IMG/VR virus record: IMGVR_UViG_3300019935_000002
Span: 14,395 to 78,394 of that record
Length of the DNA: 64,000 nucleotides
Source: a virus
Reading direction: 5' to 3' (one strand)
The translations under genes were made by a program, and so were the position numbers. Positions within the stretch are counted from its first letter, which is position 1. Each line of letters begins with the position of its first letter. The notes under the pieces were generated by a model. That model did not search any database. It was given only the letters and a program-made list of their open reading frames with translations, and had not been told where the DNA came from. Of the stretch, positions 3,209-42,540 are shown piece by piece.

Positions 3209-3631
3209 TCAAAGGTTGATTTTGTTCGCCTTTACGTACTCGGCACTACCTTGCAGTAGGCTCTTTAATTCAGCAATTCTGAACTCTTTAGGTACGATAT
3301 TACCAGGAATAAGAGGGTTGCTGTGCGGAGCCTCCTTTCTTATCTTGGCAAACTCACACCTGCCTACCGGCCTGCGTCGGACAAGCAAGGCCCTGATGGC
3401 GTCGCCTTCCACCTCAACTTTCATCAGGGCGAACTGGTGCTTGTCTTTTATACGTCTCACTACGTGCTCTGAACTTAAGACCATCACGCCACACAGAGTT
3501 ATAGTTCGCTCTCCCTCTATGGCGACTGCAAGTCGGGAGTTGCTGTCAAAGAGGTCTGAGGACTCCATTAACTTCTCCATCTCCACAGCTCTTGCTTCTG
3601 CCTTGTCAATCTCACTCAGTAAATCAATCAT
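3209..3631 (-). CDS. hypothetical protein
   Basis: Start refined to ATG after GGAGG, overlapping helicase stop. Confidence 0.7.
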   Translation of the reverse strand: MIDLLSEIDKAEARAVEMEKLMESSDLFDSNSRLAVAIEGERTITLCGVMVLSSEHVVRRIKDKHQFALMKVEVEGDAIRALLVRRRPVGRCEFAKIRKEAPHSNPLIPGNIVPKEFRIAELKSLLQGSAEYVKANKINL

Positions 3632-5183
3632 CAGAACCTCCAAACAATTCAACTTCCATCGCTTGAACAGGGAACTCTCTGCCGTTAATCTCCGTAACCT
3701 TCCTAGTCTTATCTACCATCTTAGAGAAGGACTTGTCGGCTACAGTGCCCAACACCCGCAGGAAGTAACAGACCATCGCAAACTTCTGCCCCGTCCTCTC
3801 CATGCGAGCTACCGCCTGCTGCACGTCCCTAGGGGTCGTAGGGTTCTCGACAAACAGCATGTAACGCGCTACCTGCCAGTTGAATCCTGCCCCTCCTGCA
3901 CCCCAGTTGGCGATCATCATCCCACATTCGTCCGAGGTCTCGAATTTGATTCGGTTCGCCTCTGAGTCTTTTGGTGATTGGCCACCGTAGATGACCGCAG
4001 GATTAAACTCTGCGTACCGTTCCTTCAGGTAGTCAATGGTGTCCTTGTACCAGGCCCATACGATGATCTTGTGCTTCCTTGGGTTAACAGACTCAATAAT
4101 CTCGTCAGCCGCCTGCAGTACAGTGTTGTCTTTCTTGAATTTACCCGCCTTGTCGTCATCTACATAGTGATGAGGGCAAGATAGGATTCGCCCGGCGTAC
4201 TGCCGTAGCTGAGAGGCATGCTCTGCATTAAGCAGCTCGCCGTTCACCTCCAGCAGACGAGTGTTGATCAGATTGCGGTAGAGCTTCCGGTGTGCAGGGG
4301 AAAGGTCGACAGGGACTTCGACCGGTCGCAACTCAGGCAAGTCCTTCTGTACCTCACGCAGAGTTATCTTCCTTGCCCTGCGGCACATGATTTCACCGAG
4401 CTTGTCGAGATTCTTATAGGTGTAGCCTATGATGTTCTCGAACTTACGGCCGGTATCAGGGTCCTCCTTATAGACGGTAATTGCCTGATCTACGAACATG
4501 TTGTAGAACTCTGCGTAATCAAAGAAAAGTTCAGGGTCAATAAGTTTGATCAGACCATAGGCGTCTGTCGGAACGTTGCGGATCTCTGAACCTGTAAACA
4601 GGTGAACTCCGTACATTCCCTTGCTGGCGTAGAACAGTCTCCATACAGCCCCCCATAGCTTGGTCTCGGCATTAGATAGCTTATCTGCCTCGTCAAACAG
4701 GAACGCTCGGTAGCCGACACTCTTTAGGTAGCTGCCGTCTCTGCGGATTCGCTCATAGCTCATCAGCATCAGAGGTGGCCAGCTGTCGTCCATCGTGTAT
4801 TCGGCATACTTTTCGTCGCGCTTCTTGGGGGTCATGTCCTGGACTAGGTAGTCAAACCCCAAGTCGTCAGGCACCGTCCAATCTCGCTTAAAGTCAGACA
4901 GCCACCGTCCTATCAGTTTAGGAGGCATCACCATCAGGCACTTAATGCCTGACAGGTGGTACAGGAGGATCAGAGCTTGCATAGGGATCGTCTTGCCGAC
5001 CCCCGGCTCATCCCATAGCGCTGACCGCTCCGACCACTCCTGTCCGGCCAGAATGTTAAGGCCGGATATTTGGTGGTCGAACGGGGAGTACTGATCGTTG
5101 CCGTCCGGATGGCATACGATCCTATCTGATCCTGGAGGTGAAGCAACCCCTGCCTTCTGGCACATTTCACTGAGTGTCATCAT
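3624..5183 (-). CDS. SNF2-like SF2 DNA helicase
   Basis: DEPGVGKT, FDEADK, TGSEIRN, AGGAGFN, QAVARMERTGQ. Confidence 0.9.
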   Translation of the reverse strand: MMTLSEMCQKAGVASPPGSDRIVCHPDGNDQYSPFDHQISGLNILAGQEWSERSALWDEPGVGKTIPMQALILLYHLSGIKCLMVMPPKLIGRWLSDFKRDWTVPDDLGFDYLVQDMTPKKRDEKYAEYTMDDSWPPLMLMSYERIRRDGSYLKSVGYRAFLFDEADKLSNAETKLWGAVWRLFYASKGMYGVHLFTGSEIRNVPTDAYGLIKLIDPELFFDYAEFYNMFVDQAITVYKEDPDTGRKFENIIGYTYKNLDKLGEIMCRRARKITLREVQKDLPELRPVEVPVDLSPAHRKLYRNLINTRLLEVNGELLNAEHASQLRQYAGRILSCPHHYVDDDKAGKFKKDNTVLQAADEIIESVNPRKHKIIVWAWYKDTIDYLKERYAEFNPAVIYGGQSPKDSEANRIKFETSDECGMMIANWGAGGAGFNWQVARYMLFVENPTTPRDVQQAVARMERTGQKFAMVCYFLRVLGTVADKSFSKMVDKTRKVTEINGREFPVQAMEVELFGGSDD

Positions 5184-37912: not shown

Positions 37913-37940
37913 ACTAGGCACAACAAAGCGCAATAGAGAT
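37913..37940. repeat. 28-bp perfect inverted repeat, arm upstream of ORF
   Basis: ACTAGGCACAACAAAGCGCAATAGAGAT. Confidence 0.97.
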
Positions 37941-37956
37941 AAATTGTTAAGGAGCG
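37941..37956 (-). promoter_or_regulatory. boxA-like Nus-factor site 2
   Basis: CGCTCCTTAACAATTT(ATC) vs rrn leader TGCTCTTTAACAATTTATC. Confidence 0.65.
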
Positions 37957-38015
37957 AACGGGTAACATCTCGCTAAACTGGCAACACTGTCAACCAGTTA
38001 TTAACCCGTGATCTT

Positions 38016-38174
38016 AATCTAGTTTGCTTGTTCCGCTAAACTGGCGTTCCCTGCTGGTGATGGTAGGTGGGCGCATCCTGCGCCCTTTCTTCACATAGTC
38101 TTATACTCTGCCCCGCATGGCGGCAACAGACGGCAGCCCGTACAAAATGCACGTCCGAGCAAGCAAACCAAATT
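38016..38174 (-). ncRNA. putative small RNA enclosed by 15-bp stem
   Basis: Arms 38160-38174 and 38016-38030 pair in the transcript; contains GGGCGC-AGGAU-GCGCCC hairpin. Confidence 0.45.
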
Positions 38175-38185
38175 GTTAAAGAACA
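38170..38185 (-). promoter_or_regulatory. boxA Nus-factor site 1
   Basis: TGTTCTTTAACAATTT matches GYTCTTTAANA consensus, preceded by hairpin CCGCC..GGCGG. Confidence 0.75.
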
Positions 38186-38271
38186 ACCGCCAGATCAGGC
38201 GGGCAGCCATCCCGCGCGGGGCTGGCCTGTAAATTAGGGCAATCAAACTGAAATACCCTAACCACAAAGTA

Positions 38272-38300
38272 ACTATAGCAAAGTATAAAAGACTTTGCAA
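38272..38300 (-). promoter_or_regulatory. leftward sigma70-type promoter
   Basis: TTGCAA-17-TATAGT with TG extension and AT-rich UP region; TATAAAAGA/TCTTTTATA inverted repeat around -35. Confidence 0.75.
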
Positions 38301-38448
38301 ACTCTTTTATAAAAATAGTAATAAATAAGTACCACGGTTAAAAATTCACGGTTATTAGAGTTACCGTGAAAAAATAACGAACTAGCAATATGACTGTTGC
38401 CTTGGGACTGGTCACACCAGCCAGCCAGCGACAGAGACCCCCTCCCCA

Positions 38449-39547: not shown

Positions 39548-40504
39548 ATGACCAAAAATTTTTCATCCCCCACACTCGACTACCACAACCTGCTTGTGGA
39601 TCTGAAGTTGAACGGGCATACGGAATACAACGAACGTACCGGCAAGCGCTGTACGTTTCTTCTCAACAAGACTCTGACCTACGACAGGCTTCCTTATGTA
39701 GCCACGAAGAAGGTGGCGATTCGTTCTGCGGTGGCTGAGATGCTGGGCTACCTTAAGGGTTGCACGTCGGCTGCTGAGTTCCGAGCTTTAGGAACCAAGA
39801 CATGGGATGCCAATGCGAACGAGAACAAGGACTGGCTTGAGAATCCTGCTCGCAGGGGTCAGGACGACATGGGCCGGGTGTACGGGGCACAGGGAAGAGA
39901 TTGGATTTCTCCTGCTCATGGGCTTGACCGTTCTAAACCTCCTACTTTCTATGGCAACCTCCGCAGCACGGACCAACTGGCAAAAGTGCTTGACCATCTG
40001 CTTAAAAGAATCGACGACCGAGGCGAGATCATAACTTTCTGGAACCCAGGAGAATTTCATCTTGGCTGCCTGAGACCGTGCTTGCACACACACCACTTCT
40101 CTGTCATGGACGGCAAGTTGTACCTGACCAGCACTCAGAGGTCGGCAGACGTTCCGCTGGGGCTGCCGTTCAACATGATCCAGCCTTGGTTCCTGCTTAA
40201 GTTTGTGGCCTGGCTGACAGGCATGGAGGCGGGCACTGTTACGCACCACATCGTCAACTACCACATCTACGAAGATCAGTGGGATGGCGTGGAAGAGCAG
40301 ATCGGTCGTATAGAGGCTGGGATGATGTGCGACAACCGGAACAGGGAAGCGGCAGATGACTTTGCATTTTCCTCTGCTCTTCCTCAAGGCTGCGTGTTGG
40401 GATTACAGGACGCACTGGACGAAATCAAGGAATTTAATACTGATTGCGTATGGTTCCCGGATGTTGACCATCTGTCGGCTATCGAGTTTCCTTTCTCTGT
40501 GTGA
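39548..40504 (+). CDS. thyA: thymidylate synthase
   Basis: ERTG, MGRVYGAQGR, LRPCLH catalytic Cys, QRSADVPLGLPFN, HIYEDQ. Confidence 0.97.
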   Translation: MTKNFSSPTLDYHNLLVDLKLNGHTEYNERTGKRCTFLLNKTLTYDRLPYVATKKVAIRSAVAEMLGYLKGCTSAAEFRALGTKTWDANANENKDWLENPARRGQDDMGRVYGAQGRDWISPAHGLDRSKPPTFYGNLRSTDQLAKVLDHLLKRIDDRGEIITFWNPGEFHLGCLRPCLHTHHFSVMDGKLYLTSTQRSADVPLGLPFNMIQPWFLLKFVAWLTGMEAGTVTHHIVNYHIYEDQWDGVEEQIGRIEAGMMCDNRNREAADDFAFSSALPQGCVLGLQDALDEIKEFNTDCVWFPDVDHLSAIEFPFSV

Positions 40505-40523
40505 CCGGACAGGCAGCTACTTG

Positions 40524-40552
40524 TTGACATAGGCTCAGAACCTGCCTAGTAT
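40524..40552 (+). promoter_or_regulatory. sigma70-type promoter of RNA cluster
   Basis: TTGACA-17-TAGTAT. Confidence 0.8.
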
Positions 40553-40556
40553 AGGG

Positions 40557-41217
40557 ACTGTTCAAATAGGTAGTTCCTTCCGGCTAGTCCGGAGGTTTTG
40601 GGTACCTCATCCAGGTACGGCATCTTAGCAGTGACACAGGCCTTTAAGGAGGTTCGACTGTGTAGCGGGTGCCTAATCGGCCGTAATGAGCAGCAGTGGG
40701 TTTTCTGAGTTCCCTTGAGCCGTCCGCCGGCACGGTCTGCGAATGCCGGCATCTGTTTGGTTTATGCGAAGCGATCTGGCCTCATCGCCTATAGATCGTG
40801 GAGGAACCCCCATAAGTAGATGAGTGCTTGTGCAAGGGTGAGACTTAAACCGCTAAACAGGACGCCCTGCCAGCTAAGCTGGAGCCTGCACTAACCTGTA
40901 GTAAGGTCGAGCCCATGGCGGGTAATAAGTGCGTGGGACTATAGGGCAGTTGCAGGACTCTGCCACCCGCTGACTGACCAGCGGTTAAACAACACCTGCA
41001 CCCGTGAAAGCGGAAACCCTTCGAGGTCGCAGAAGTAAAAGCGGCAACCGGCACCATCAGCGGTATATCTGGTGGTCGTTGGTTAGGGCTATTAGTTTGA
41101 AAAGGGTGTCTAAGTAAGCTTTCGGCCTCTGCATTCACCGATCAAAATACCACGCGGCCGCTTTAGAACAGAAGAGTGGAGAGTGAGGTTGGAATCCTCA
41201 TAGCCCTAACCAATGAC
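40557..41217 (+). ncRNA. putative large structured ncRNA (~660 nt) with tRNA-like 3' module
   Basis: No credible ORF; more than 10 hairpins/helices incl. GAAA tetraloop and a 17-bp helix 41075-41091/41201-41217; follows a promoter, precedes tRNAs. Confidence 0.7.
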
Positions 41218-41244
41218 AATAATCTACGCAAGCAGGGTGTCATA

Positions 41245-41607
41245 ATGAGACAGCTAGACGACCACAAAATAAACCCAGCAAACGACACTATAAATATCAC
41301 AGTTCTGGACGAACCTGGGGCAGGCGGAGCTTGCCACGAATATGAAATCAGCCACAGCGAAATGCCGTCGACTGTTATCAGCTTTCAGAACGGCCCGATT
41401 AGTGAAGAAGGGGTCGGAGTAAACGGCCTGACCCATGAAGTACTGCTGGCTATACTAGCTGATCGTCTGAGGGGTTTTCAGTCTGGCCCCTACGCATGTA
41501 AGGCCAACGAGCAGGCGCTAACGAAGCTGGAAGAAGCGCAGCACTGGCTACAGCAGCGTACGCTGGAGCGCATGCGACGCGGCGTTGAGGGAACTCATAA
41601 GGTTTAA
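41245..41607 (+). CDS. tad1: Tad1-family anti-defence signal sponge
   Basis: GAGGACHEY, FQNGP, LLAILADRLRGFQSGPY, NEQALTKLEEA, RRGVEGT align with Tad1 motifs as recalled. Confidence 0.8.
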   Translation: MRQLDDHKINPANDTINITVLDEPGAGGACHEYEISHSEMPSTVISFQNGPISEEGVGVNGLTHEVLLAILADRLRGFQSGPYACKANEQALTKLEEAQHWLQQRTLERMRRGVEGTHKV

Positions 41608-41738: not shown

Positions 41739-41813
41739 GGGCCTGTAGCTGGACGGTTCAAGCGGACGGCTCATAACCGTCTGACCCCGGTTCGATTCCG
41801 GGCAGGCCCACCA
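41739..41813 (+). tRNA. tRNA-CAT, probably Ile2 (lysidine) rather than Met
   Basis: GGGCCTG/CAGGCCC acceptor, GACGG-CTCATAA-CCGTC arm, TTCGATT loop, CCA; paired 1-72 so not initiator. Confidence 0.9.
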
Positions 41814-41837
41814 CTAACTACACGAGAGGCAGAAATC

Positions 41838-42029
41838 ATGAAAACTTACGAAGAGTGGAAAGCTGATGTTGACCAAAAGGTCGATGATGCCGTCGCCGCA
41901 ATGAAGCGAGTAAAGGCCGTTTTTGAGGAGATCGATAAGGTCGACACTAAGGGCGTCTCACCGACAGACGTACATGCCTTTGCGATTGCTGCGTCTCTTA
42001 AAATGAGTAAAGCCGCGGAGGAAATGTGA
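41838..42029 (+). CDS. hypothetical protein
   Basis: ORF with GAGG SD. Confidence 0.7.
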   Translation: MKTYEEWKADVDQKVDDAVAAMKRVKAVFEEIDKVDTKGVSPTDVHAFAIAASLKMSKAAEEM

Positions 42030-42307
42030 TGGACGTTTTCCCTAAGTGGTCAGTAGTAAATCTCGACAACGGCTATCAAGTGCTCGTAGAGCTGCGTGAA
42101 CCGGATGAAGACGAAGACGACCTAGAGACAGCGACCGCAATTGTAAGCTATAAGACGGCGTTCCCGGAGGCGTTGATGGAAGACAAGTCCTACGTAAAAG
42201 ATAAAGCTCCAGAAGAGATTGACTTCGCGGCTATTACGACTACTGAGATTTGCCAGAAACGATGGGATGAGATGGACAAATCCTACAACGCCTTCTACTC
42301 TTTATGA
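42026..42307 (+). CDS. hypothetical acidic protein
   Basis: ORF coupled to upstream gene. Confidence 0.7.
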   Translation: MMDVFPKWSVVNLDNGYQVLVELREPDEDEDDLETATAIVSYKTAFPEALMEDKSYVKDKAPEEIDFAAITTTEICQKRWDEMDKSYNAFYSL

Positions 42308-42313
42308 TTCACA

Positions 42314-42387
42314 GCGCCATTAGCTCAGCCGGATAGAGCGGTCGTCTCCTAAGCGACAGGCCGTAGGTTCAAGTCCTGCATGGCGCA
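42314..42387 (+). tRNA. tRNA-Arg(CCT)
   Basis: GCGCCAT/ATGGCGC acceptor, GTCGT-CTCCTAA-GCGAC arm; CCA not encoded (TCA). Confidence 0.92.
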
Positions 42388-42391
42388 TCAC

Positions 42392-42465
42392 AGGTCGGTA
42401 GCTCAAAGGTAGAGCAGAGGTTCCAAACTCTCGTGTCGAGGGTTCGATTCCCTCCCGGTCTGCCA
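42392..42465 (+). tRNA. tRNA-Trp(CCA), atypical anticodon stem
   Basis: AGGTCGG/CCGGTCT acceptor, G73, CCA end, loop TTCCAAA; 5' stem strand one base short. Confidence 0.75.
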
Positions 42466-42466
42466 A

Positions 42467-42540
42467 GCGGGTATAGTTCAAAGGTAGAACATCAGCCTTC
42501 CAAGCTGAGAATGCGAGTTCGATTCTCGTTGCCCGCTCCA
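42467..42540 (+). tRNA. tRNA-Gly(TCC)
   Basis: GCGGGTA/TGCCCGC acceptor, TCAGC-CTTCCAA-GCTGA arm, U73, CCA. Confidence 0.95.

Follow-up and report, generated by a model that had tools for sequence, protein, structure and literature searches.

A gene-free stretch between the thyA and Tad1 genes of an uncultured phage as a possible patchwork of small RNA modules

The locus and its relatives

The window analyzed here, a stretch of 64,000 nt, corresponds to positions 14395-78394 of an IMG/VR phage record of 78,394 bp with direct terminal repeats. The sequence is found in DNA runs of microbial-mat metagenomes, with no RNA run among those listed, and four partially matching sequencing runs gave low-depth, identical fragments with zero variants inside the RNA stretch. 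Within the window, thyA and the gene for Tad1 (Thoeris anti-defence 1) enclose a gene-free stretch, with a tRNA cluster lying beyond Tad1 (Table 1). The initial annotation had described about 660 nt of this stretch as a single large, ornate non-coding RNA, preceded by a near-consensus promoter, lacking a credible ORF, densely paired, and heading the tRNA cluster. The promoter is indeed there, with a predicted transcript start near 40559, and the absence of an ORF is borne out: the longest ORF on the + strand reaches at most 37 aa, and the minus-strand ORFs (97, 68, and 46 aa) have negative codon scores of -0.06 to -0.19 bits per codon, as is found in shadow ORFs. For real genes of the window the score is +0.08 to +0.43, and it is positive for the Tad1 gene and the small ORFs too.

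Table 1. Positions of the features discussed (window coordinates unless a related contig, L096 or L128, is named).
Feature	Position	Strand	Remarks
thyA	39548-40504	+	Pfam PF00303, E 3e-53
Gene-free stretch	40505-41244	+	between thyA and Tad1 gene
Sigma-70-type promoter	40524-40552	+	TTGACA-17-TAGTAT; 10/12 consensus positions
Leader hairpin	40576-40599	+	CCTTCCGG/CCGGAGG then UUUU, terminator-like; window only, not in L096 or L128 leaders
Conserved 5' core	40600-40690	+	irregular ~90-nt hairpin opening with GGGTAC; hand alignment of three sequences
H1	40606-40610 with 40686-40690	+	CTCAT with ATGAG
Loop	40611-40618	+	CCAGGTAC
H2	40619-40624 with 40668-40673	+	GGCATC with GGTGCC
Loop	40625-40634	+	TTAGCAGTGA
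H3	40635-40663	+	variable hairpin
AGCG	40664-40667	+	
Extension of 5' domain	40691-40750	+	GUGGGUU...UUCCC and H5; common to window and L128
H5	40726-40732 with 40744-40750	+	GCCGGCA/TGCCGGC, GCGAA loop
Window-specific middle	40751-41074	+	~320 nt; many short hairpins possible, including CCGT-GAAA-GCGG
tRNA-like 3' module	41075-41217	+	143 nt; z -4.1; layout recurs in L096 only
Closing stem	41075-41091 with 41201-41217	+	17 bp
T-arm	41184-41200	+	TGAGG-TTGGAAT-CCTCA; joined directly to 3' strand of closing stem
Tad1 gene	41245-41607	+	120 aa; matches solved Tad1 structures (8kbb, E 1e-17)
tRNA cluster	41739-42540	+	Met, two small ORFs, Arg, odd tRNA, Gly
Odd tRNA	42392-42465		anticodon loop of 6 nt (TTCCAA); CCA encoded
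L096 promoter	3287-3315		TTGACG-17-TATATT
L096 closing stem	3595-3601 with 3704-3710		7 bp (plus 3)
L096 T-arm	3686-3702		GTCGG-TTTGAAT-CCGAC
L128 promoter	4266->4238	minus	TTGACA-17-TATATT

The thyA product is 318 aa long, with an extra segment ahead of its normal C-terminus; full-length counterparts occur in just a handful of uncultured relatives (56-96% identity), and ordinary ThyA proteins cover ~70% of it. The odd tRNA is called by ARAGORN as tRNA-??? (Gly|Trp, 'cc') and scores 51 bits with the Rfam tRNA model; it may decode with a shortened loop, or else be in decay. Between tRNA-Met and tRNA-Arg, the ORF at 42026-42307 encodes a very acidic protein of 93 aa with a DEDEDD run, a high codon score of +0.43, and no Pfam match, a composition that recalls DNA-mimic anti-restriction proteins.

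The search covered IMG/VR, the GenBank phages, 185,579 prokaryote species with one genome apiece, and, in a single pattern scan, the JGI metagenomes; it yielded two related loci, L096 and L128. Both came from IMG/VR, where motif scans with four patterns returned these two alone; the JGI metagenome scan gave 28 matches, all of them chance or coding, and an 18-base pattern matched GTDB genomes three times, in unrelated MAGs, which we took for chance. Neither the window RNA nor the L096 RNA had a blastn match among 50,697 GenBank phages, nhmmer, blastn, and tblastx detected nothing similar in the DNA upstream of 73 Tad1 loci and 15 thyA loci, and the whole records of five Tad1-bearing phages contained no similar element. 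Major capsid and TerL anchors retrieved only fragments of the same small lineage; TerL has just 11 relatives among 5.8 billion proteins, and the nearest cultured phages by this protein are Vibrio phages at 34% identity. The count of three loci thus holds within the reach of exact-motif and BLAST searches, and the comparison is one of three sequences from a single narrow phage lineage, the contigs of the closest thyA relatives (up to 96%) and of the TerL relatives, known from protein searches, having been left out of the alignment.

L096 is a 14.6-kb contig whose TerL and capsid are 82% identical to those of the window phage at the protein level. Its thyA is followed by a promoter, ~390 nt without an ORF, tRNA-Arg, and tRNA-Met, and Tad1 is absent. 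In L128, a 5.1-kb contig whose upstream gene differs from that of the window, the promoter is followed by a 55-nt leader and the initial ~155 nt of the element, behind which stand a Shine-Dalgarno site and a 22-aa ORF; there is no tRNA-like module, no tRNA, and no Tad1. The promoter layout, with its 17-nt spacer, is common to all three loci. The notion of one conserved unit of ~660 nt does not survive this comparison, as L096 has only ~390 nt with another interior and L128 only the first ~155 nt. That the RNA heads the tRNA cluster is true of L096 alone, where it runs straight into tRNA-Arg; in the window the Tad1 gene intervenes.

Tad1 lies between the RNA and the tRNAs in this phage only, being missing from L096 and L128, and on 73 further viral contigs the gene stands in surroundings of other kinds. 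Because the gene is so widespread, with nothing similar to the RNA region in the upstream DNA at any of these 73 loci, we regard it as mobile cargo; judged by this distribution, Tad1 is inserted cargo and no member of the RNA family.

Some further observations concern the related contigs. The 22-aa ORF of L128 (4009->3950, minus strand; MQYLALVLLILWLMIESYM) is strongly hydrophobic, has a good Shine-Dalgarno site, directly follows the 5' RNA domain, and may encode a small membrane peptide controlled by the 5' RNA leader. Between the promoter and the RNA core of the same contig, the leader contains a direct repeat, TTGAACGTTTGG, present twice (4224->4195, minus strand). In the window, non-coding DNA at 37913-38370, upstream of the + strand gene block, shares 72-85% identity with L096 over 270 and 66 nt and is a further candidate regulatory or RNA region.

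A conserved 5' hairpin, a variable middle, and a tRNA-like 3' module

The 5' core is an irregular hairpin present at all three loci, with the consensus GGGTAs, CTCAT, CCAGGyAC, 6 nt, TTAGCnnTGA, a variable hairpin, AGCG, 6 nt, 11-12 nt, and ATGAG, in that order. Covariation was assessed in a hand alignment anchored on the invariant words; RNAalifold on a MAFFT alignment, in which the 3' strand of H2 of L128 was misaligned, gave a poor consensus and was not used. The fixed segments of the core outside H2 are identical at 35-36 of 38 positions (92-95%), as compared to 67-73% for neighboring coding DNA. The strands of H2 are identical at only 4-8 of 12 positions, yet 17 of its 18 cells pair, the one exception being A-C, and four of the six pairs have changed on both sides (GC to CG, CG to UA, UG to GC, and CG to AU). 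A conservative count puts compensated changes at four of five changed positions, with a chance probability of ~0.07. The U-G pairs of H2 are compatible with the + strand only and so favor it as the RNA strand. The inner hairpin, H3, keeps its position, its sequences being unrelated and 19, 29, and 32 nt long, and the conserved loop, GC-NNN-GA opposite NA-GC, may, judged by eye, be a k-turn signature.

Downstream of the core, the extension shared by the window and L128 ends in H5, which in L128 reads GCCGAC/GTCGGC, one compensatory change from the window. In the window H5 is followed by a U-rich tract, ATCTGTTTGGTTTAT, that L128 does not have. The 5' core gains no stability over shuffled sequences (z from -0.85 to +0.7), so the case for it rests on the three sequences. 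Folding no better than shuffles is common among irregular hairpins that bind proteins.

The stretch as a whole had been called densely paired. The complementary word pairs listed in support are all present (13 of 13), and short inverted repeats outnumber those of dinucleotide shuffles about 2- to 5-fold (7-mers, 15 vs 5.4 ± 3.0; 8-mers, 8 vs 1.4 ± 1.5), a good share of the excess being supplied by a single 17-bp stem. The folding energy, however, is weak: z is -1.9 for the + strand and -0.9 for the - strand, and along the + strand it goes from -0.75 in the 5' part through -1.35 in the middle to -4.1 in 41075-41217, the only segment that stands out. The middle, for which z is +0.24 on the - strand, has a counterpart in neither L096 nor L128 and shows no coding signal by codon score, and most of the helices proposed initially fall within it, without comparative support or a significant folding signal. 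Between the 5' core and the tRNA-like module lie ~384 nt in the window and 178 nt of unlike sequence in L096. Other mat samples yielded two short Logan contigs that match just 41002-41043 or 41046-41098 and then diverge, which hints at population variants with a different RNA middle.

The 3' module has one layout in the window and L096: a closing stem, ~90 nt of interior that include a long arm, and a T-arm adjoining the 3' strand of the stem directly. Its z in the window is due to the 17-bp closing stem, and the L096 module reaches a similar value on the + strand (-4.07); on the - strand the values are -4.5 for the window and -2.2 for L096. Both phages keep the T-arm features of a 5-bp stem, G53-C61, U54, U55, R57, and A58, and the three stem pairs that differ between them all still pair. 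C56, which is present in all six true tRNAs of the two phages, is replaced by G in the window and by U in L096, and the module is thus not a plain tRNA. With both strands of the 78-kb genome taken together, T-arm-like motifs occur only nine times, and four of these belong to the true tRNAs. The L096 module ends 4 nt before tRNA-Arg, so that it stands at the head of the tRNA row without decoding. Its T-arm matches that of the tRNA-Met of the same phage at 13 of 15 positions, so that the two module T-arms may be separate tRNA derivatives rather than orthologues; if they did arise independently, the apparently compensatory changes between them could mean little.

Known RNA families and coding alternatives

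At gathering thresholds, Rfam 15 finds four tRNAs and nothing else in the whole window, and a cmscan of 40400-41400 at E<=10 returns just two chance snoRNA matches. The suggestion that this might be a divergent GOLLD or ROOL RNA (Rfam RF01998 and RF03087) fails on these searches, and the ROOL model finds no match in L096 or L128 either. Nor do the tRNA model (RF00005) in 40400-41400, the YrlA model (RF02553) in the window, or the models for group I and II introns and RNase P RNA give any match at E<=10; in L096, RF02553 reaches E 1.8 with 21 bits against a cut-off of 69 bits, at a site overlapping the true tRNA-Arg. ARAGORN at default settings, with or without introns, calls no tRNA in the region, and tmRNA is found neither by the Rfam models nor by ARAGORN at default. 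Given the negative Rfam 15 results, we assign the stretch to none of GOLLD, ROOL, tmRNA, RNase P RNA, group I or II introns, T-box, YrlA, or tRNA.

Other candidates were considered and set aside. At -ps80, ARAGORN makes a sub-threshold call of a permuted tmRNA in the window, with none in the relatives, and we judged such low-threshold calls to be noise. In L096 the word GGUGGUAC resembles a T-box, but it does not occur at the other loci, and RF00230 gives no match. An intron of thyA is ruled out because that gene is intact up to its normal C-terminus and the promoter lies beyond its end. A phage attachment site (attP) carrying a copy of a host tRNA 3' end is unlikely: the T-loop departs from the canonical one, and an integrase gene was not noticed in the vicinity. 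A reading frame does remain open through the 5' core at all three loci, its start codon being TTG in the window, ATG in L128, and missing in L096, and the peptides diverge completely after ~12 residues, with a codon score of -0.10; a hidden small protein gene is unlikely since there is no common start codon and the peptides diverge so early.

The likeness to previously described RNAs is in each case partial. GOLLD and ROOL are long, ORF-free RNAs associated with phages and prophages and often found beside tRNA genes (PMC5737381; bioRxiv 10.1101/2024.12.08.627333); they are conserved over their full length, in contrast to the stretch described here, which is conserved in parts and negative with their covariance models. 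YrlA RNAs contain a tRNA-mimicking domain with a T-arm and are substrates of RNase P and of CCA addition (PMC4201824). The 3' module shares the T-arm with them, but its topology is not permuted, C56 is absent, and the phage has no Ro60 gene: Ro60 (TROVE) and RtcB are both absent from the complete 78-kb genome.

A proposed composite operon head and its rivals

We propose that the stretch forms a composite operon head, made up of several small RNA modules and not of one giant RNA, and give this reading a probability of about 0.45, a little short of even. In the suggestion that it forms a new class, the part that stands concerns the covarying 5' helix with its near-invariant loops and the tRNA-like 3' module, whereas the stretch as a whole does not qualify. 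Going by the comparison of the three loci, these modules are probably real RNA elements under selection and would constitute a new, very rare family.

Under this proposal, the host RNA polymerase would read a transcription unit that has this stretch as its untranslated head. The first module (40600-40750) is fixed behind the promoter whatever lies upstream or downstream, which suggests to us an action in cis, on the transcript that carries it. The likeliest mode would be that of a docking site for RNA polymerase or for a protein, which would keep a long RNA/tRNA unit transcribed or stable in the manner of HK022 put or of boxA-type leaders; such a unit would be prone to Rho and to terminators because it is long and largely untranslated. 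The second module (40751-41074) would be lineage-specific filler or accessory structure. The third (41075-41217) could be an anticodon-less tRNA look-alike, ancestrally the first of the tRNA row, whose T-arm, stacked on an acceptor-like stem, would draw tRNA-processing enzymes, RNase P above all, while the 17-bp stem could draw RNase III. A cut at this module would set the Tad1 mRNA and the tRNAs free of the leader RNA, leaving a stable capped end. The paired extension of the closing stem would, however, hinder RNase P, which counts against the processing proposal. Among described RNAs, T4 RNAC and RNAD (PMC3014915) and the tRNA mimic YrlA (PMC4201824) come nearest to this third module.

Put-type RNAs offer the nearest parallel for the first module. 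As nascent RNAs they bind the beta-prime zinc-binding domain of RNA polymerase and suppress termination in cis. HK022 put is a two-stem RNA of ~70 nt lying just downstream of an early promoter, where it makes the polymerase termination-resistant (PMC9378689). In common with putL and putR, and with boxA/nut elements, the 5' core is a promoter-proximal irregular stem-loop with conserved bulges or loops and a long operon downstream. The likeness to put is one of position and stem-loop form only, not of sequence or structural homology, so that antitermination would be an analogy here, and the Rfam matches include no put family; put, moreover, is built of two stems of ~35 nt, as opposed to one ~90-nt hairpin with two large internal loops and extra hairpins. 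One could go further and envision a cis-acting RNA of a new class, binding the polymerase or a protein and rendering its RNA/tRNA/anti-defence operon termination-resistant, joined to a tRNA look-alike serving as decoy or processing handle, the whole forming an RNA-based control unit of a counter-defence island, but we regard this fuller version as improbable.

Three other explanations deserve consideration, and each is rated below the composite operon head. The first envisions two trans-acting small RNAs, one of ~190 nt ending at H5 and its U-rich tract and the other an anticodon-less tRNA mimic that would act as a decoy or sponge for host tRNA-binding factors, e.g., tRNA-cutting defence nucleases. 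Such a pair would fit the neighboring Tad1 and spare tRNAs, the tract that follows H5 in the window, and a module located in the tRNA row and, in both phages, devoid of C56. Small RNAs of this kind have a precedent in T4, whose RNAC and RNAD have tRNA-like ends and are processed with the tRNAs. RNAC and RNAD (species 1 and 2) are small non-coding RNAs of unknown role made by cotranscription from the T4 tRNA gene cluster (PMC3014915), and phages are also known to have tRNA-mimicking YrlA RNAs (PMC4201824). The stretch resembles RNAC and RNAD as non-coding RNA accompanying a tRNA cluster; it shares no sequence similarity with them (blastn, GenBank phages), and its tRNA-like part comes last in a far longer leader, opened by a separate conserved hairpin. 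Against two small RNAs, L128 lacks the U-rich tail after H5, the domain there being a 5' UTR, and Tad1 is linked to the RNA in none of the relatives. The genome has neither Ro60 nor RtcB, and the conserved loops have no target complementarity within the phage genome. We thus consider this explanation unlikely, albeit the most probable of the three.

Less probable again is that the stretch is mostly non-functional spacer containing a decayed tRNA copy and an insertion, its 5' conservation reflecting a DNA-level signal such as an operator or another promoter-proximal site. The folding of the 5' part and of the middle, which is not significant, would be consistent with this, as would T-loops that deviate from the canonical form, an L096 T-arm resembling that of its own tRNA-Met, and a lineage so tiny that drift is possible. 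However, H2 varies in sequence and still pairs between invariant flanks, which is unlike a DNA-binding site, and the closing stems are kept in both phages with different sequences and z of about -4. The stability of the L096 module is, in addition, strand-specific.

The least likely is the original idea of one large, trans-acting RNA of ~660 nt, a new GOLLD- or ROOL-like class of which the relatives would be reduced or rearranged: the stretch is long, ORF-free, promoter-driven, and adjoins tRNAs, with enriched inverted repeats, a lower whole-region z on the + strand than on the - strand, and GNRA-type hairpins in the window and in L096, but it has no Rfam match at E<=10, its interior is different sequence in L096 and missing altogether in L128, its middle folds no better than shuffles, and in L128 a small ORF, predicted to be translated, directly follows the 5' domain.

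The composite operon head remains our preferred reading. With three loci the family is tiny, and its general impact is therefore limited unless more members turn up; the host-type consensus promoter makes the whole unit directly testable in a laboratory bacterium. Should the modules work as proposed, they would add to the poorly understood non-coding repertoire of phage tRNA regions a new promoter-proximal RNA element, here situated next to an anti-Thoeris gene, and another anticodon-less tRNA mimic.
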